Source: an uncultured Lachnospiraceae bacterium
GTDB lineage: Bacteria; Bacillota; Clostridia; Lachnospirales; Lachnospiraceae
DNA length: 64,000 nucleotides
Assembly (NCBI GenBank): GCA_964653855.1
Contig: CAZZFV010000004.1
Location: forward strand, 5,899 to 69,898
Direction of reading: 5' to 3'
The notes beneath the pieces are model-generated. The model made no database searches and was not told the DNA's origin. It saw only the letters and a program-made list of their open reading frames with translations. Position 1 is the first letter of the stretch; each line of letters begins with the position of its first letter. The translations under genes were made by a program, and so were the position numbers. This document shows, piece by piece, positions 1,378 through 10,177 of this stretch.

Positions 1378-1764
1378 TTACAATATCCAATCATAATGTA
1401 TGTTGAGCAAAAATGCCGCAATTATAACCACCGCAAAAAAAGAAATCATGAATAAGAAAAATGCTCCCCTTCTTTTCAACACCAAATCCGTTCTTTTCTT
1501 TTCGGTATTTTTTAGGATTTCATCGATATTCGAATAATTCAAAAAATCATATTGGTCATCCATAAAGTGAAATGCCGACGAAAACATAAAATAGGCATTT
1601 AACTCCTTTTTACATTCGGGACATGTGTTTATGTGATCGGCAAACATGATTTCGTCTTTTAAGCTTAATTTGCCGTTGATATAATCCGGATTAAGCCTTC
1701 CGATTTCTTCACACGTAAAATCTTTGATTTTTTTTGTTTTTTCTTTTGTACGTTTTGTTTTCAT
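1378..1764 (-). CDS. zf-HC2 (anti-sigma-factor-like) membrane protein: Lys-rich N-terminus, one C-terminal TM helix, about 8 residues outside
   Basis: H-x3-C-x2-C motif (HINTCPECKKEL), preceded by CEEIGRLNPDYINGKLS as in ZAS-type anti-sigma N-domains. C-terminal TM is AFFLFMISFFAVVIIAAFLL. The track start at 1800 is TTG; the ATG at 1764 (MKTKRT...) sits 7 nt after a TATAAT. The stop is 10 nt from the polA ATG. Confidence 0.7.
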   Translation of the reverse strand: MKTKRTKEKTKKIKDFTCEEIGRLNPDYINGKLSLKDEIMFADHINTCPECKKELNAYFMFSSAFHFMDDQYDFLNYSNIDEILKNTEKKRTDLVLKRRGAFFLFMISFFAVVIIAAFLLNIHYDWIL

Positions 1765-1771
1765 GCCTTTT

Positions 1772-1800
1772 ATTATAATTTTTACGCATTGTAAAAGCAA
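1772..1800 (-). promoter_or_regulatory. Sigma-A-type promoter (TTGCTT-17-TATAAT) upstream of the zf-HC2 gene and polA
   Basis: The minus strand reads TTGCTT TTACAATGCGTAAAAAT TATAAT AAAAGGC ATG. The -35 hexamer lies inside the 43-bp repeat. Confidence 0.5.
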
Positions 1801-1836
1801 GAAAAAGTTACCTTTTCTGTCGTCCGAAGCATTTAA
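1794..1836. repeat. 43-bp perfect repeat, copy A (identical to 6556..6598)
   Basis: aaagcaagaaaaagttaccttttctgtcgtccgaagcatttaa was compared base by base with 6556..6598. It contains the 6-7-6 inverted repeat AGAAAA-AGTTACC-TTTTCT. Confidence 0.95.
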
Positions 1837-1860: not shown

Positions 1861-3765
1861 TTATCCAAAAACAATACATAAAGTATTCCACAAAAAATGG
1901 TTGACGACACATACAGAGATCGACCCTGATTTTTTATACAAAAAACATAAATAAATTCCGAAAACAAACGTGATAATTTTTGTAACCGATCCGTCATGCA
2001 GCAAAGCAAAAACTGCCGCACTTGTTATTATTGACACAACGTTCCACATTTTGTTTTCATTCCACATTTTATTTATATAATCAAACAGCAATCTCCTGAA
2101 CAGAAATTCTTCTCCGAGAGCCGTCCAAAATCCGTGAGATATTACCGTAAACAACATTGTAACCAAAAACGTTACGGAAAAATATTCCGATATGTTGCTT
2201 TCTTCGACGTAGGCCGGAATATTCAATGCCTTTTCTATAAAATACACAACAAAGTACGCAATACAAACGCATACAATCGAATATATAAAAATTTTTTTCG
2301 TCTCTTTATAGGGAACCCTTTTTATCGTTTCGTCCGAGTTGTTTTTTTTATTTGCATATTTGTTAAATAAGAATATAGCCAAAACACTCGAAATAAAGTA
2401 AATAAATTTGTTTAAAATATTCGAAGTATTACCGTTTATTTCAATTTCAAAATTTGAGAATAATCCTTCACAAGCGTCAGTAACAACTCCTGCAAAAAAA
2501 TATATGCACACAACACCGAGAATCAAAAAAACTCCCTTAAAAAAATCTATAAATTGTATTTTTTTTTTGCAAGTATTTTCCGTTTTTTCTTCATCATAAA
2601 ATTTCTCATCAAAAACAGCAAAATACGAAATAATTCCGCATATAACGGATACAATCACACATATCAAAAAGCTTCCGAATATCGCAGCAACACTTATTTC
2701 AAACGAAAAAGACATCAATTCGAACATATATCCCATTATATATTCAATTACAGAATTCATGAATCCGCGAATTAAGAACACCGAAATCATTCCGAACACA
2801 CACCCGATAAATCCTTGAACACCGGAAATCAATATCGAAAATTCAAGCAAAAATTTTTGAGGACATCCGCAAACATAAATCATTTTGTAAAAATCTCTGT
2901 TACTTGTCATGATTTCAACCGAAACATTTATAAGACCGATTGAAATTATGGCAATCAAAATAATACATATGCCGAATGCAGATGTAGAAAAAAGGCCTCC
3001 GAATTCATTATTGTATCCATATTCCTTATTTAAAAAGGAAACATAATAATTTTCTTCATTAATAATTTCCTGTGCCGTAGGAAAAAATTTTGCATTTGGC
3101 AATTCATAATCAACCACATCAACGTAATAATTCGAATAATCGATATTTTCATACGGAAAATAAATATCGCCAAAAGCTATCGACGTTTCGATTGAACTCG
3201 GAATAATTCCTACTACCTTTCCGGTGTACTCATATTCTTCGAATCCATGTATTGTAACACAAATATATTTACCGACCGCATCTATAGCACTTAAATTCGT
3301 TTTTTTTAAAAAGTTTTCGGATATCCATACGCCCGGGCTTGATATATCATATTCCGTAAAAAAATCTTTTTCGCTATCAAAAATAAAACATTCTTCTTTT
3401 AAATAGCTCAAAACTCTGATTTTATTGTCATAAACCGCTTCATTATAACAAACCGAAAAATCATCATACTCTGATAAAACACGTATATTACAATTTCCGA
3501 TTTTATCACCTATCTCTTTGACCTTTTTGTATGTTAAATTTGGAATAAAAGATTCTGTTCCGGTTGAATACCATTTTAAACCGTTTCCCGTTGAAATAAT
3601 TTTCGTACCGAGTTCATTTTCGTTATCCAAAATATCAGTACTTTTTCCGAAAGATAAAATTATAACGTAAACCATCGACACCAATGCGAAATTAATCCAG
3701 CAAATCAAATATTTTGTTTTGTGATTAATCATCCATTTATATATAAGTCGTAATACGTTAATCAT
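1861..3765 (-). CDS. Fusion protein: MacB/FtsX-type ABC permease (N-terminal ~390 aa) fused to a CPBP/Abi (CAAX-type) intramembrane metalloprotease (C-terminal ~220 aa)
   Basis: The N-terminal part has TM1, a ~230-aa extracytoplasmic domain and an FtsX-like 3-TM block (IISIGLINVSVEIMTSNRDFYKMIYVCGC...EFSILISGVQGFIGCVFG). The C-terminal part has all three CPBP motifs: EEFLFRR (EExxxR), FALLH (FxxxH) and HFLWN (HxxxN). Confidence 0.75.
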   Translation of the reverse strand: MINVLRLIYKWMINHKTKYLICWINFALVSMVYVIILSFGKSTDILDNENELGTKIISTGNGLKWYSTGTESFIPNLTYKKVKEIGDKIGNCNIRVLSEYDDFSVCYNEAVYDNKIRVLSYLKEECFIFDSEKDFFTEYDISSPGVWISENFLKKTNLSAIDAVGKYICVTIHGFEEYEYTGKVVGIIPSSIETSIAFGDIYFPYENIDYSNYYVDVVDYELPNAKFFPTAQEIINEENYYVSFLNKEYGYNNEFGGLFSTSAFGICIILIAIISIGLINVSVEIMTSNRDFYKMIYVCGCPQKFLLEFSILISGVQGFIGCVFGMISVFLIRGFMNSVIEYIMGYMFELMSFSFEISVAAIFGSFLICVIVSVICGIISYFAVFDEKFYDEEKTENTCKKKIQFIDFFKGVFLILGVVCIYFFAGVVTDACEGLFSNFEIEINGNTSNILNKFIYFISSVLAIFLFNKYANKKNNSDETIKRVPYKETKKIFIYSIVCVCIAYFVVYFIEKALNIPAYVEESNISEYFSVTFLVTMLFTVISHGFWTALGEEFLFRRLLFDYINKMWNENKMWNVVSIITSAAVFALLHDGSVTKIITFVFGIYLCFLYKKSGSISVCVVNHFLWNTLCIVFG

Positions 3766-3794
3766 TTTCTCTTTTTTATCCCTTTTAACCCGAT

Positions 3795-4457
3795 TTAAAT
3801 TATTTTTCCGTCCGCAAGTTTAATCGTTCTGGGTGCCAGCCTAGCCATATCCATATCATGAGTAACAAGAATTAAAGTTTTGTTTTCGGATAATTTTAAA
3901 ATATTGTCCATAACTTCTTTTCCAGTTTTTTCGTCAAGATTTCCTGTGGGTTCATCTGCCAAAATAATTTGAGGATTGTTTACAAACGCTCTGGCAATAC
4001 AAACTCTTTGTCTTTCTCCTCCGGAAAGCTCACTCGGTCGATGTTTAATTCTGTTTTCAAGTCCGACAAGTTTTAACATATACTCGGCTCTTTCCGTGTA
4101 CTCTTTTCTTTTTTTTCTGTTAATCATCATAGGTAAAGCAACATTTTCAAGAGCATTTAAAGAATTTTCAAGATAAAAAGATTGAAAAATAAACCCGATT
4201 TGTTTATTACGAAATTCAGAAAGTTCTTTTGATTTTTTTTCGGACATATTTACATCATTTATCAAAACACAGCCCGAAGTGGGCTTACTTACAGTTCCGA
4301 GCACATTAAGCAACGTTGTTTTTCCTGAGCCTGACTTACCGATAATTGATACAAACTCTCCGTCATCAATTTTTAAATTTATATTGTCAAGAGCTTTTAC
4401 AAAATTTTCCGAGCTCAAATTTCCGTAAATTTTACATACATTCTCACATATAATCAT
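3795..4457 (-). CDS. ABC transporter ATP-binding protein (MacB/LolD/FtsE-like)
   Basis: Walker A GKSGSGKTT, signature LSGGERQR, Walker B ILADEPTGNLD. Its start overlaps the upstream permease stop by 4 nt. Confidence 0.9.
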   Translation of the reverse strand: MIICENVCKIYGNLSSENFVKALDNINLKIDDGEFVSIIGKSGSGKTTLLNVLGTVSKPTSGCVLINDVNMSEKKSKELSEFRNKQIGFIFQSFYLENSLNALENVALPMMINRKKRKEYTERAEYMLKLVGLENRIKHRPSELSGGERQRVCIARAFVNNPQIILADEPTGNLDEKTGKEVMDNILKLSENKTLILVTHDMDMARLAPRTIKLADGKII

Positions 4458-5779
4458 AAGTTTCTCCGAGATAAATTTTTCTTCACATTAACAAAAACCG
4501 CCAATATGCCTGTAAAAATCAAAATACAACCCATACCGATTGCCGAAGCATAAACAAAACAGTTAAAAGGCAACAAAATATCTTTTAACGATTTAAATTC
4601 CGGCGTTCCGTACAACATCAAATATCCCATAACAAAACATATAAAAAAAGAAAAAAAGCTGCCGCTGATCCAACCGATTATTCCGTATTCGACACCTTCA
4701 CACATCATAATTCCCGCCACAGAATTTTTTTTCGACCCAAGCTTTTCCAATATGTCCCATGTTTCAATTTGTTCTTCATAATTTCTGTATAATGTCGAAA
4801 AAAGCATGAAAAGCGTCACAAAAACAGTCAATATTCCCACACACTTTAACATGCGCTGTAAAAAAAGTATCAAAATCTGTTCGGAAATAAGTCGTTCTCC
4901 GTCTGCTGACGCTATAATACTGAATCCGCACCTTATATCATCAAGCAAAGGCTCAAGAGAAGAATTATCGTTTGCATAAACTCTTATAAAACTTCCGTTG
5001 GCATTTTTTAAGTCGGGTATTAATTTTTTTACAATATCCGAAGATACAAGCATATCATTGCTTAAAGCAGTCATCATTCCTTGCTTTTTAAACATATCTT
5101 CATCAACATTCCAAAAACGATCCGATAATTCTTCGTTATAAATTCCGACTATCAAAGCCTCGGCTTCGTTATCGGCATAAGTAAACTTTATTTTTTCACC
5201 CACCGCCTGCTCAGCGGTTACATCGTAATACTCAAGCATACAGTTGCTTACAATGGCGACATTTTCTTCCCCCTTATACGGCAATCTTCCCGCAACCATA
5301 ATTTCTTTGTTTTCGGAGATAAGTTTATCTGTAAGTGATCCGGAAAAAAAATCAAAATTTGTATCAAATCCGCGCATCTTCGGAATCATTTTTTCTTTTT
5401 TTCCAAACATTTCGAATGAATAATTAAAAAAAAGAGTATCATATTCAATAACAATATTTTTAACTCTTTTATCATTTTGCAAATATGATATCAGCACCGT
5501 TGGTTCTTTTGCAAATTCATTTTGTGCTTCATCAATACTTGAATAATCATATGACGAGTCAATATTTATATATATTTCCGTAATATCAACTCTTTGTTCT
5601 TCATTGCGCGATGTTACATAAACGATGCTGTTTTCGGATGTGGCTTTGAATTTTCTATATGCAAAATCAAAATAAAATGAAATTGTGATTACAACAAAAG
5701 AAAGTGCAATTCCAATCACGACACTGATTGTTCTGCCTTTCCTTTCTTTTATTTTTTTTAAGGCAAACCATGCTTCCAT
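4454..5779 (-). CDS. FtsX-family ABC permease (MacB-type: TM1, large extracytoplasmic domain, 3 C-terminal TMs)
   Basis: N-terminal TM is TISVVIGIALSFVVITISFYF. The C-terminal FtsX-like block is VGILTVFVTLFMLFSTLYRNYEEQIETWDILEKLGSKKNSVAGIMMCEGVEYGIIGWISG. Confidence 0.8.
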   Translation of the reverse strand: MEAWFALKKIKERKGRTISVVIGIALSFVVITISFYFDFAYRKFKATSENSIVYVTSRNEEQRVDITEIYINIDSSYDYSSIDEAQNEFAKEPTVLISYLQNDKRVKNIVIEYDTLFFNYSFEMFGKKEKMIPKMRGFDTNFDFFSGSLTDKLISENKEIMVAGRLPYKGEENVAIVSNCMLEYYDVTAEQAVGEKIKFTYADNEAEALIVGIYNEELSDRFWNVDEDMFKKQGMMTALSNDMLVSSDIVKKLIPDLKNANGSFIRVYANDNSSLEPLLDDIRCGFSIIASADGERLISEQILILFLQRMLKCVGILTVFVTLFMLFSTLYRNYEEQIETWDILEKLGSKKNSVAGIMMCEGVEYGIIGWISGSFFSFFICFVMGYLMLYGTPEFKSLKDILLPFNCFVYASAIGMGCILIFTGILAVFVNVKKNLSRRNL

Positions 5780-5798: not shown

Positions 5799-6494
5799 TT
5801 AATTTTTATAAGGATTGGTATCACTTGTATCAACAAAAACTCCGAAACACTCAGAAATTATTTCATATATTTGTTCTTTTGGAGAAAAACTTGTTACTCC
5901 AACACTCAAATTCTTTTTTGCCTCCGCTTCGGTACAATGAATTCCGGAAACTTGGCGTACCTTTTCAACGTCACATTGATAACCGGTTATCGTTTCCTTT
6001 TCGTATGTTTGATATAACTTATACCATATCCCCGGCACCGGTGAATATGTATAAGAAGTTTTAACAGTTGTTTCATCAGAGTTTTCCCATTCATGAGAAA
6101 ATGCCGACTTCAAATCACCGATTCCCACATTACTTTTTAAAGATAAATCAACCGTTGTTTTTCTTCCTTCCGTATGACTTGCTGAATGTTCAACGGCATG
6201 TGTAACACTTCCCTTCGGAAAATATGACCATGCGGTCATTGCACTGTAAAATTGATTACTGAAGTTGTCAATATCTTCGTACACATCACTATACGATTCA
6301 ACATATGCATCATACCAAATTAAAGTCTTTTCCCAATAAGAATCATGATAAAAAGTTTCCGCCATTTTTTTATTATCAACATGGAAATCGTAAAAATCAT
6401 AGCAAAGAAATGTCAAAGTCAAAAAAGAAGTCAAAAAAGAAACACATACAACAAGAAATAATTTTTTATTTTTCATTTTCCCCGTCCCCCCCAT
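5799..6494 (-). CDS. Signal-anchored/secreted protein of unknown family; first gene of the ABC/CPBP operon
   Basis: N-terminal KNKKLFLVVCVSFLTSFLTLTFLCYDF is followed by a ~195-aa Tyr/Trp/Ser/Thr/Glu-rich domain with no motif I recognise. An alternative ATG lies at 6476. Confidence 0.6.
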   Translation of the reverse strand: MGGTGKMKNKKLFLVVCVSFLTSFLTLTFLCYDFYDFHVDNKKMAETFYHDSYWEKTLIWYDAYVESYSDVYEDIDNFSNQFYSAMTAWSYFPKGSVTHAVEHSASHTEGRKTTVDLSLKSNVGIGDLKSAFSHEWENSDETTVKTSYTYSPVPGIWYKLYQTYEKETITGYQCDVEKVRQVSGIHCTEAEAKKNLSVGVTSFSPKEQIYEIISECFGVFVDTSDTNPYKN

Positions 6495-6522: not shown

Positions 6523-6551
6523 ATTATACGATTACATATATATGATGTCAA
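6523..6551 (-). promoter_or_regulatory. Consensus sigma-A promoter (TTGACA-17-TATAAT) for the anchored-protein/FtsX/ABC/FtsX-CPBP operon
   Basis: The minus strand reads TTGACA TCATATATATGTAATCG TATAAT. The 43-bp repeat ends 4 nt upstream of the -35. Confidence 0.75.
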
Positions 6552-6555
6552 TCGC

Positions 6556-6598
6556 AAAGCAAGAAAAAGTTACCTTTTCTGTCGTCCGAAGCATTTAA
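6556..6598. repeat. 43-bp perfect repeat, copy B (identical to 1794..1836)
   Basis: Same 43-mer in the same orientation. Weaker, gapped similarity continues about 20 nt past each end. Confidence 0.95.
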
Positions 6599-6653: not shown

Positions 6654-6736
6654 GCTGGTGTGGTGGAATGGCAGACACAACAGACTCAAAATCTGTCGGG
6701 GGCAACTTCGTGCGGGTTCAAGTCCCGCCACCAGCA
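6654..6736 (+). tRNA. tRNA-Leu (anticodon CAA), class II with long variable arm, no encoded CCA
   Basis: Acceptor stem GCTGGTG/CACCAGC, D-arm GTGGAATGGCAGACAC, anticodon loop CT-CAA-AA, T-arm GGGTTCAAGTCCC, discriminator A followed by T8. Confidence 0.9.
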
Positions 6737-7765: not shown

Positions 7766-10177
7766 TCATTCAACGCCCCGTCTTATATGCCCTCTCGTAA
7801 ATTTTCCTTTGGGCTCCGTATGATTTAAGTAAGCTTTTATTATTTCTTTTGTTTCCGCGTAGCTTTCTGTCGTAAAGGAAAGCATATGGCTTTTTGCGTA
7901 ACTTAATTCCTGTTCTTCCTTAAGCCCGATTATCGAATAAATTTCGGAATTATATATAATGTTTACGCAGGTCGTGCAGCATGTTTTAACGGGGAACACC
8001 GCTCCCGTCTTATCGGTAATACTTATTTCCTTTACCGTTCCCTTTAAATTTTTGGAGCAGTTAAGAAAATTATCCCGCACACACCCTGCAGTCACCATAA
8101 GAGGCACACGCCCGTATATCGGCATATTTAACTCCGTAAAATCAAGTTCCTTTAATTCCGGTAAATTAAGTTCAAGAGATGCGGTAATAGTCTTTGCTCC
8201 CGTGATTTTCTTTAAAAATGCACCCGCCTCGTTATTCATAACATAAAGGAACTCGGAACAGATTATATTCTTACATTCCTTATGCTTTTTTAAAAATGCG
8301 ATTTCGTCAAGCGAATGCACCATAACTCCGTCCGGAATCGCAAAATCCGCTTCCTTATCAAGTCTGTCCGCATCCCTGTATCTTAAAATTCTCGGGAGAC
8401 ACAAAACAGCCTTTATATTTTTTTCTTTTATTTGTTTTATATAATCAATTTGAGCGGAAATACTTATGTCTTGCATATCAAGTATAATCAAATCCGGTGT
8501 AAAAGTGTCCAAAACGGCATCAAGTTCGGCTTTATCGGAAACCCTGCAAACAATTTCCGGGATTGATTTTATTCCGCATTCATCGTTTGATTTTGCTTCA
8601 TTTTCGTATTCAAAGCACTTTTCCGATTTTCTTTTATATGAATCGAGTATTGTGTTTTTTAGTCCGAGAAATGCCGCTCTTCTGAGTTCTTTTAATTTTC
8701 CTACGGGTACAAAAATATTGTCTCCCATATCCACGGTCAGGTAAGAAAAATCAAATTCGCTTTCACCCGTTTTATTTAAAACTTTTTTTATGTCATCCGC
8801 AGACATCGGCACATTTTTTGCTTTTTCCGCAATATCACCCGTAACGGTGAACGAAAAATTATCTGAAGAAACGTTTAAGCGTATTTTTTCGTTTTCATAT
8901 AAAACAATATGTCCGCTTACACTTCTTTTTGCATGCTTAACAAGATAACTTTCGTTTATTTTATCATAAAGCGTTTCATTCTTTGTTCTGTATACCATGT
9001 CCCCCGCTTTACATTTAAAATTTGCGGGAATACATATTTCATAAACCGAGTCACGGCTTTCGTTATACGATTTTAGTCCTTCCGCACCCACGGTAAATTC
9101 AAAAGTATCGTTGTTTCTTATTTCAAGAATGTCACCCTTGTTGATTTTTTCGGTTATGTTTATTATCGCACTTCTTCCGTAAACGTTTTTTAAATTTCCC
9201 ACCAAAATTCCCGAGTGATTCGGGCGCTTATCGCTCATCATATTCTTTCCGTGGTAACAAAAATAATAACCTTTCGAAAAGCCGCCGCGATTAAAAAGTT
9301 CAGAAACCTCTTTTATTTTTTCGGGAAGTTCATTGGGATTTTCTTTTATATATTTTTCAAATCCGTCACGTCCTTTGGTTTCATAAAGACGCGCAATGTA
9401 AGAATACGCGGCCGTAACTCCCGCCGAATATTCGGGGCGCTTCATTCTGCCTTCGATTTTAAAGGAATTAATTCCCGCATCAATCAAATCGGGCAAAAAA
9501 TCAAGCGTGCACATGTCTTTAAGACTAAGCAGGTATCCGTCCCGTACTTTTTTAGATTCTTCAGACAATGTATATTTTTGACGGCATGGCTGAGCACATC
9601 TTCCCCTGTTTCCGCTTCTTCCGCCTATCATGCTCGAAAACAAACATTGTCCCGAATACGAATAGCATAACGCCCCATGCACAAAGCATTCCATTTCGAG
9701 GCCGGTTTCCGATCTGAAACGTTTAATTTCAGTGAGTGACAATTCCCTTGCGGGCACAACACGTGTTACGCACGCATATTTTTTAAGAAAATCCGCACCC
9801 GCTCCCGTACATATTGAGTTTTGGGTGCTAAGGTGAATGGGTAACCCCGGAAAATTCTTTGAAACAAAAGAAAGAACACCCAAATCCTGCACAATAACCG
9901 CATCGATTCCGTGTTCATAATACACTTTCAAAAAATCAAAAAGCTCCTTTTCAAGTTCTTTTTGCTTAAAAAGCGTATTGACGGTCATATATATTTTTTT
10001 TTCGTTTAAATGCACAAAATCGATGGCAGAAAGAAGTTCACTTTCATTTGGGTTATTGGCATACGCTCTTGCCCCAAATTTATTGCCACCGACATAAACT
10101 GCATCCGCACCCGCCGTTATTGCACCGTAAATTGATGCGTACGACCCCGCAGGCGCGAGAATTTCTGTTTTATTCAT
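7766..10177 (-). CDS. Peptidase U32 family protein (long, ~800-aa form)
   Basis: U32 signature ECFVHGALCYSYSGQCLFS and an N-terminus EILAPAGS...AGADAVYVGG. Confidence 0.85.
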   Translation of the reverse strand: MNKTEILAPAGSYASIYGAITAGADAVYVGGNKFGARAYANNPNESELLSAIDFVHLNEKKIYMTVNTLFKQKELEKELFDFLKVYYEHGIDAVIVQDLGVLSFVSKNFPGLPIHLSTQNSICTGAGADFLKKYACVTRVVPARELSLTEIKRFRSETGLEMECFVHGALCYSYSGQCLFSSMIGGRSGNRGRCAQPCRQKYTLSEESKKVRDGYLLSLKDMCTLDFLPDLIDAGINSFKIEGRMKRPEYSAGVTAAYSYIARLYETKGRDGFEKYIKENPNELPEKIKEVSELFNRGGFSKGYYFCYHGKNMMSDKRPNHSGILVGNLKNVYGRSAIINITEKINKGDILEIRNNDTFEFTVGAEGLKSYNESRDSVYEICIPANFKCKAGDMVYRTKNETLYDKINESYLVKHAKRSVSGHIVLYENEKIRLNVSSDNFSFTVTGDIAEKAKNVPMSADDIKKVLNKTGESEFDFSYLTVDMGDNIFVPVGKLKELRRAAFLGLKNTILDSYKRKSEKCFEYENEAKSNDECGIKSIPEIVCRVSDKAELDAVLDTFTPDLIILDMQDISISAQIDYIKQIKEKNIKAVLCLPRILRYRDADRLDKEADFAIPDGVMVHSLDEIAFLKKHKECKNIICSEFLYVMNNEAGAFLKKITGAKTITASLELNLPELKELDFTELNMPIYGRVPLMVTAGCVRDNFLNCSKNLKGTVKEISITDKTGAVFPVKTCCTTCVNIIYNSEIYSIIGLKEEQELSYAKSHMLSFTTESYAETKEIIKAYLNHTEPKGKFTRGHIRRGVE

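Follow-up and report, generated by a model that had tools for sequence, protein, structure and literature searches.

A stretch of 64,000 nucleotides from an uncultured rumen Lachnospiraceae bacterium (assembly GCA_964653855.1, contig CAZZFV010000004.1, positions 5,899 to 69,898; the window in what follows) encodes on its minus strand a 634-amino-acid protein in which an FtsX/MacB-type permease of the ATP-binding cassette (ABC) systems is joined to an intramembrane protease of the CPBP family. The gene is the last of a four-gene cassette, where it is accompanied by a single ABC ATPase, a second and unfused FtsX permease, and an orphan exported protein. This architecture and the cassette, taken alone, can be put forward with very high confidence. 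The statement as a whole, i.e., that a LolCDE-like machine feeds the tethered protease and thereby serves immunity, is tentative and falls somewhat short of an even chance. The fusion of two genes is a strong indication that their products act jointly, and because this one has survived duplication and deep divergence with its protease active site intact, the sequences argue that the FtsX-type ABC motor and the CPBP protease form one working unit.

A permease and a protease in a single gene

The fusion gene and its parts are listed below, with the basis of each assignment.

1861..3765, minus strand: fusion gene, 634 amino acids, FtsX/MacB-type permease followed by a CPBP protease (single open reading frame, two independent assemblies, three paralogs)
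2596..3765, minus strand: permease module, residues 1-390, with a first transmembrane helix (TM1), an extracytoplasmic domain of ~210 amino acids and TM2-4; FtsX domain at residues 266-383 (hydropathy, Pfam, family profile, Foldseek)
2554..2610, minus strand: charged linker, residues ~386-404 (FDEKFYDEEKTENTCKKKI), from the fourth FtsX transmembrane helix to the first CPBP helix (hydropathy)
1864..2553, minus strand: CPBP/Rce1-like module, residues ~405-634, ~8 helices (Pfam PF02517, motifs)
1882-2157, minus strand: Pfam core of the CPBP domain, residues 537-628 (PF02517)

The open reading frame is a genuine single gene. Its 634 codons contain no internal stop, and the ATG start at 3765 is backed by an alignment in which three paralogs begin at the same residue. 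Two independent metagenome assemblies in the European Nucleotide Archive (ERZ27279221 and ERZ27279222) encode an identical fusion product in the same gene context, with a DNA identity of 99.9% to the window locus over 3-5 kb. A sister species of the same genus, represented by the metagenome-assembled genome (MAG) of Lachnospiraceae bacterium Tb.RUG.54 (here referred to as G008), holds three full-length fusion copies of 674, 679, and 685 amino acids, which are free of stops and whose identity to the window protein is 34, 29, and 28% (overall range 26-35%). All four fusions of the two species have their junction at one and the same position, and one of the G008 copies reappears unchanged in another MAG record of that species (the sole return of a metagenome scan). 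The single polypeptide described in the initial annotation thus stands. The error that this annotation had allowed for, a missed stop or frameshift near codon ~400, fails before two independent assemblies and four fused genes in two species. That an error of assembly or sequencing merged adjacent permease and protease genes is extremely improbable: an unfused 421-amino-acid relative of the N-terminal half does exist (P0003, 32% identical), and FtsX and CPBP genes are as a rule separate elsewhere, but the identical frame occurs in two further assemblies, and the sister species has the same junction in three genes, one of them in two separate MAG records.

For the N-terminal half, hydropathy predicts a first helix at residues ~20-40, a loop of ~210 amino acids, and three more helices at 260-285, 308-335, and 355-385. 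Judged from the window sequence alone, the identity of this half as an FtsX permease is suggestive: Pfam FtsX (PF02687) matches residues 266-383 with 21.4 bits, under its cut-off of 25.5, and MacB_PCD, the model for a Porter/Sabre-type outer domain, reaches 14.7 bits, under a cut-off of 27. The assignment as a four-helix MacB/FtsX (type VII ABC) permease is secured by three observations taken together, namely, FtsX scores over the cut-off in the three full-length paralogs (28.8, 28.1, and 34.3 bits), a match of the family profile to permeases of known structure, and the list of structural matches returned by Foldseek. The best solved match of the profile is YtrF of Bacillus subtilis (PDB 9o9x_C, E 3.3e-6), followed by LolC and LolF, and the alignment with YtrF runs from end to end (residues 10-386 against 11-417); the unfused relative P0003 scores 32.8 bits with Pfam FtsX. 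Searches with a low-confidence AlphaFold2 (AF2) model returned type VII ABC permeases in all of the 49 top rows (LolE/C, Spr0694/5, YtrF, MacB, HrtB, YbbP, FtsX, and BceB, the last a weak match only), with E-values down to 1.5e-11. Against LolC/E and MacB, ~400 columns were covered at TM-scores of only 0.35-0.42, from a model with a predicted local distance difference test score (pLDDT) of ~50-75 in this half. The alignments behind the AF2 models were very shallow (3-4 sequences), and from the model of the fusion only the Foldseek list for the N-terminal half was used, with caution. The FtsX/MacB-type topology that had been proposed at the outset is borne out by hydropathy and by the end-to-end alignment with YtrF; the Pfam FtsX cut-off is reached at the level of the family, the window protein itself being sub-threshold.

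The linker, which differs in length among the four fusions, leads into a C-terminal half whose assignment is direct. PF02517 matches residues 537-628 of the window protein with 58.5 bits (cut-off 22.4, E 8.3e-16) and the paralogs with 58-74 bits. The three catalytic motifs (pattern EExxxR, FxxxH, HxxxN/D) are present as EEFLFR at residue 552, FALLH at 586, and HFLWN at 623. The C-terminal halves of the four fusions share only 14-48% pairwise identity and 17 invariant residues, among which are E552, E553, and R557 of motif 1, F586 and H590 of motif 2, and H623 and N627 of motif 3. Because the catalytic residues were kept through such deep divergence, the alignment argues for a working enzyme. 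The initial annotation was therefore right about a CPBP domain with all of its catalytic motifs, which prove invariant in the four fusions. Its description of CPBP proteins as metalloproteases is outdated, as they are now regarded as glutamic intramembrane proteases, and the structure of an archaeal Rce1 is without a metal site (PMC6588880).

The cassette, its insertion site and its sister cassettes

The four genes of the window cassette (4.76 kb) all lie on the minus strand in the order p231, 441-amino-acid FtsX, ATPase, and fusion, and are bracketed by a direct repeat.

5799..6494, minus strand: p231, first cassette gene, orphan signal-anchored exported protein of 231 amino acids (open reading frame)
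4454..5779, minus strand: second, unfused FtsX permease, 441 amino acids (Pfam FtsX, 20.6 bits)
3795..4457, minus strand: ABC ATPase of the MacB/LolD/FtsE type, 220 amino acids, the sole ATPase gene of the cassette (ABC_tran, E 9e-35)
6523..6551, minus strand: sigma-70-type promoter TTGACA-17-TATAAT, 12/12 consensus positions, before p231 and just inside the cassette (pattern scan; a consensus match only)
6556..6598, no strand: right copy of the direct repeat, 43 nt (repeat search, family D1, 100% identity)
1794..1836, no strand: left copy of the direct repeat, 43 nt (repeat search, family D1, 100% identity)
6654-6736: tRNA-Leu adjoining the cassette

Both the neighbouring 441-amino-acid FtsX permease and the single ATPase, which had been named as partners in the initial annotation, are real genes. 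The ATPase gene lies 29 nt upstream of the fusion and overlaps the FtsX gene by 4 nt, and the intergenic gaps in the cassette are 20-60 nt. Among NCBIfam models the ATPase scores best with LolD (256 bits), followed by FtsE (206 bits) and the Lcn972-type/MacB nucleotide-binding domain (204 bits), all under their equivalog cut-offs, and it has an identity of 52-65% to its counterparts in the three cassettes found in the sister species. The orthologues of the 441-amino-acid permease in those cassettes score 28.8-41.5 bits with Pfam FtsX and are 24-36% identical to it, and BLASTP detected no similarity between this permease and the N-terminal half of the fusion. p231 has no match in Pfam, NCBIfam, PADLOC, or PDB, and its AF2 model (pLDDT 35.6) is unusable. 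Only two relatives of it were found, a 97%-identical variant and a 261-amino-acid protein (p261) that is encoded at the corresponding place of the closest sister cassette and is 31-32% identical. A PADLOC search gave generic ATPase matches only, and a known anti-phage defence system was rejected on these grounds.

The two copies of the 43-nt repeat are perfect, lie 4762 nt apart, and bracket exactly the four cassette genes; no integrase gene is present inside the unit that they bound. The site is empty in three relatives, in which the order is U32 peptidase, Nudix, ComFB-like open reading frame, zf-HC2, and polA with nothing in between, so that the zf-HC2 gene and the ComFB-like frame on the tRNA-Leu side are adjacent where the cassette is absent. 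The GC content of the cassette is 30-33%, against 36-40% in its flanks. The repeat marks either an insertion or a duplicated junction beside tRNA-Leu, and because it coincides with an empty site in relatives and a low GC content, the cassette is seen as a unit inserted next to this tRNA gene.

All three cassettes of G008 share a core of an FtsX permease (419-434 amino acids), one ATPase (220 amino acids), and a fusion, so that each of the four cassettes combines a pair of different FtsX genes with just one gene for an ATPase. Each G008 cassette adds, between the FtsX and ATPase genes, an orphan signal-anchored exported protein of 280-300 amino acids, here referred to as the p300 type. These proteins, which have no family or solved-structure match, are encoded as follows.

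L016, 8644-9546: p300-type orphan protein
L017, 4624-5481: p300-type orphan protein
L018, 4679-5521: p300-type orphan protein

The hhalign probability between the p231 and p300 types is 0.2%, on which the idea that they are distant homologues was rejected.

The surroundings of the sister cassettes differ. The closest one (G008:C46, L039), which also carries the p231 homologue, lies directly downstream of a transfer-messenger RNA gene (2672-3021, tag ANDNLALAA) and is preceded by a 370-amino-acid protein (3200-4312) with an XRE-type helix-turn-helix (HTH) at its C-terminus (residues 315-368). The N-terminus of this protein also appears HTH-like by eye, and it may be a peptide-sensing (RRNPP-like) regulator. 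The second (G008:C12, L017) lies between a repressor of the BlaI/MecI/CopY family (2795-3181) and a tyrosine integrase (8155-9210); the repressor is without an adjacent BlaR1-type sensor, and the integrase directly follows the fusion gene. The third is located between a GH127 glycosidase and flagellar rod genes.

Outside the cassette, the window has one further membrane protein gene close to the fusion.

1378-1800, minus strand: zf-HC2 anti-sigma-like gene, directly upstream of polA and 60 nt downstream of the fusion

Its product has a C-terminal anchor with only ~8 residues outside. Each of the 14 genomes of the genus carries exactly one copy of the gene, which in G008 resides on a contig separate from all three cassettes. 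It is a core gene independent of the cassette, and the idea that it belongs to the cassette or encodes a substrate dedicated to it was rejected. The part of the window that was read shows no sigma-factor gene.

A proposed mechanism and its alternatives

Type VII ABC systems such as LolCDE, HrtBA, BceAB, FtsEX, and the MacAB-like pump of Streptococcus pneumoniae work mechanically on substrates at the outer face or in the outer leaflet of the membrane. Because each of the four cassettes has two unlike FtsX genes and one ATPase gene, a LolCDE-like heterodimer is envisaged, in which the 441-amino-acid FtsX, the FtsX-CPBP fusion, and two ATPase subunits would, judging by gene content, assemble as LolCDE does. 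A short cytoplasmic linker tethers the permease to the protease. ATP-driven motion of the FtsX helices and of the outer domains would seize, at the outer leaflet, a peptide or protein associated with the membrane, which would then be passed sideways to the attached protease and cleaved. The proposal of the initial annotation, in which the tethered protease is gated or positioned through ATP hydrolysis, is plausible and in keeping with the conserved gene set and the short linker. The stronger version, in which the type VII motor pulls membrane-embedded or lipid-anchored outer-leaflet substrates into an attached Rce1-type glutamic protease, i.e., ABC-gated proteolysis, is in itself judged unlikely. 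We know of no characterised example of intramembrane proteolysis gated by an ABC motor among FtsX-type systems.

As for the biological role, the favoured reading is that the cassette protects its own host (by immunity or resistance) from membrane-active peptides, e.g., bacteriocins, as a possibility that does not quite reach the probable, because the module is patchy, mobile, multiplied, fast-diverging, and free of biosynthetic genes. An accessory, mobile, and fast-diverging character is what is expected of immunity or conflict genes. The second Foldseek match, 5xu1, is the MacB-type pump of S. pneumoniae, and this pump, BceAB, and YknYZ all act against antimicrobial peptides. Members of the CPBP/Abi family, for their part, function in bacteriocin immunity or peptide processing (Kjos 2010; SagE, MroQ, SilX, and DidK in PMC9298176 and PMC10811503). 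Several points weigh against this role and mechanism. No bacteriocin gene is found in or next to the window cassette. The exported accessory proteins differ among cassettes, a variability as compatible with partners or substrates as with immunity. Some CPBP proteins, e.g., Abx1, act without proteolysis although their motifs are intact (PMC9298176). Lastly, the AF2 model of the fusion has a pLDDT of 49.6, with the CPBP half below 50, and is unusable for domain packing or the orientation of the active site.

The main rival is a machine for maturation and release, in which the protease would act on a product encoded in its own locus, in the manner of SagE, MroQ, SilX, and DidK with their peptides, and the FtsX part would free that product from the membrane. 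The substrate would be p231/p261 or a p300-type protein, whose anchor is clipped off, or a small signalling peptide. It is a serious, if rather unlikely, alternative: CPBP enzymes do mature peptides during export (PMC10811503, PMC9298176), p231 is promoter-proximal and combines an N-terminal anchor with an orphan outer domain, every cassette encodes at least one exported orphan protein, and the closest sister cassette stands directly behind the 370-amino-acid regulator with its XRE-type HTH. The same proteins also count against it, since the p231 type is missing from two of the four cassettes and the p300 type from the window; moreover, a recognisable leader or cleavage motif was not seen, and the gaps in the window cassette leave no room for a small-peptide gene. 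Type VII ABC systems, too, are not known to carry substrates across the membrane from the cytoplasm.

Two further readings are less likely, each being improbable to about the same degree. In one, the FtsX part serves as sensor of an envelope-active compound, and the protease cuts a membrane-bound regulator to turn on a response, comparable to BceAB-BceS flux sensing or PrsW-RsiW. Regulators do stand before two of the sister cassettes (the BlaI/CopY-family repressor and the XRE-type protein), and the membrane-anchored zf-HC2 product is encoded beside the fusion in the window. The regulators, however, differ among cassettes, none lies inside the repeats of the window cassette, and the zf-HC2 gene keeps its place next to polA with or without the cassette. 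In the other, the outer domains dock and activate the p231 or p300 type at the cell surface, as FtsEX does with EnvC, PcsB, or CwlO, and the CPBP half is mainly a scaffold. The signal-anchored partner in every cassette, the capacity of some CPBP proteins to function without catalysis (PMC9298176), and the kinship with YtrF, whose operon is linked to cell-wall phenotypes (PMC13729185), would all suit such a role. A scaffold is hard to reconcile with catalytic residues that are strictly kept in four very divergent copies; the accessory proteins lack a hydrolase or coiled-coil activator signature as well as a family match, and a patchy, mobile distribution is unlike that of housekeeping wall machinery. 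Feeding of captured peptides to the tethered protease for self-protection is retained as the preferred reading.

A tethered protease would be a new output for mechanotransmission, besides the activation of hydrolases (FtsEX), the extraction of lipoproteins (LolCDE), and the protection of targets (BceAB). Most bacterial CPBP proteases are without a known substrate, and a motor-linked version offers a compact four-gene system in which to seek one. The cassette may be a mobile module for immunity or peptide processing that is exchanged by rumen Lachnospiraceae; its narrow, lineage-restricted distribution limits its general importance.

Known systems and distribution

The closest precedent for the architecture is NF041647 (ABC_perm_CPBP), likewise a single polypeptide of ~636 amino acids with an ABC permease as its N-terminal half and CPBP as its C-terminal half. 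The window fusion matches this model with 47.9 bits (cut-off 435) and in the CPBP half only (residues 398-632 of the protein, 413-632 of the model). A protein that matches model positions 2-401 is hit by Pfam ABC2_membrane_3 (98 bits), ABC2_membrane_2, and ABC2_membrane, which assigns the permease of NF041647 to the ABC-2 type, with another fold and mechanism than FtsX; P0151 is an example of such an ABC-2-type permease fused to CPBP. Because the permease halves are of different types, the two fusions arose independently, and the window protein is not a member of NF041647. No functional study of NF041647 was found, only a table entry in PMC12598562, and no description of an FtsX-CPBP fusion was found in the literature on CPBP/CAAX together with FtsX/MacB. 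The initial annotation knew of no characterised example of the coupling. This needs amending as regards the general coupling, since a fusion of an ABC permease to CPBP had already been named, albeit of the ABC-2 type and with no experimental characterisation found. The FtsX version is thus a new form of the permease-CPBP fusion and not a new principle.

Among ABC systems, LolCDE likewise pairs two unlike four-helix permeases of the FtsX type, whose outer domains are large, with a single ATPase gene, and it takes membrane-anchored substrates from the outer leaflet; LolC and LolE are matched by profile and Foldseek, and LolD is the best NCBIfam match of the cassette ATPase. The Lol equivalog cut-offs are nevertheless far from being reached (TIGR02212, lolCE, gives 15.9 against 362 bits for the 441-amino-acid FtsX and nothing for the fusion), and no Lol protein bears a protease. 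The host family Lachnospiraceae belongs to the single-membrane Firmicutes, which have no outer membrane and no LolA/LolB pathway. YtrEF, Spr0694-0695 of S. pneumoniae, and BceAB are type VII ABC systems of single-membrane bacteria tied to envelope stress or antimicrobial peptides, and YtrF is the best sequence match of solved structure over the whole N-terminal half, albeit a remote one (E 3e-6). They differ from the cassette in having homodimeric or internally duplicated permeases and no protease. The BceAB permease has ten transmembrane helices, two FtsX domains, and its outer domain between TM7 and TM8, whereas the fusion has one FtsX domain and its outer domain between TM1 and TM2. The function of YtrEF itself is still unclear (PMC13729185).

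On the protease side, stand-alone CPBP/Abi proteins (PlnI/SkkI-type immunity proteins, SagE, MroQ, SilX, DidK, and the myxosortases) share the Pfam family and the catalytic motifs of the fusion, which itself has weak NCBIfam matches to MrtJ, MroQ, and Mrt_core that miss the equivalog cut-offs widely. Such enzymes work at the membrane, often next to ABC transporters, and have peptides or anchored proteins as their targets (PMC9298176, PMC10811503, PMC11980579), but they are separate proteins of ~220-350 amino acids, none of which is covalently joined to an FtsX permease. The principle of the fusion is also met in an unrelated setting. In peptidase-containing ABC transporters, a C39 peptidase is fused to a type IV/I exporter, so that the polypeptide carries its own protease and cleavage is coupled to transport. 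The two arrangements are alike in principle and not homologous, since the transporters combine a soluble cytoplasmic cysteine peptidase with a classical exporter fold, and the fusion an intramembrane glutamic protease with a permease of the mechanotransmission type.

The fusion is rare. Its own genus has it in 2 of 14 genomes, a sample of one genome from each of 400 other genera in the family gave none, and an exhaustive phmmer search of 1.84 billion representative proteins returned exactly four fused proteins, next to the unfused P0003, separate FtsX permeases of ~400 amino acids, and CPBP proteins of ~220-350 amino acids. Word-indexed protein searches returned the fusion itself only, and a locus search of genome contigs with the window fusion found nothing. 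All of these surveys were based on similarity to the window fusion, and unrelated FtsX-CPBP fusions may exist elsewhere. A tblastn search of plasmid and phage records gave no match to the fusion, and an origin from a plasmid or phage was rejected on that basis. In a tree of the N-terminal half, the four fusions and P0003 form a clade with 100/100 support and an unresolved three-way split, which suggests that the fusion happened once, P0003 being either the ancestral state or the product of a secondary loss.

Further observations were made on more distant relatives. In related genomes, a search of ±1.5 kb around the closest CPBP relatives that stand alone found no ABC ATPase gene. Among the distant CPBP matches, P0146 (554 amino acids) and P0150 (483 amino acids) have an N-terminal HAD-family hydrolase fused to a C-terminal CPBP domain, and P0139 (806 amino acids) and P0149 (501 amino acids) have a long unassigned region ahead of it. 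On the permease side, an 830-amino-acid open frame in a genome of the same order (G052:C39:16147-16797, L007) matches residues 146-378 of the fusion, i.e., the outer domain and FtsX. This 3.6-kb locus also holds an ATPase-like sequence that is 48% identical to the cassette ATPase, and the 830-amino-acid frame may be a MacB-like fused ATPase-permease.

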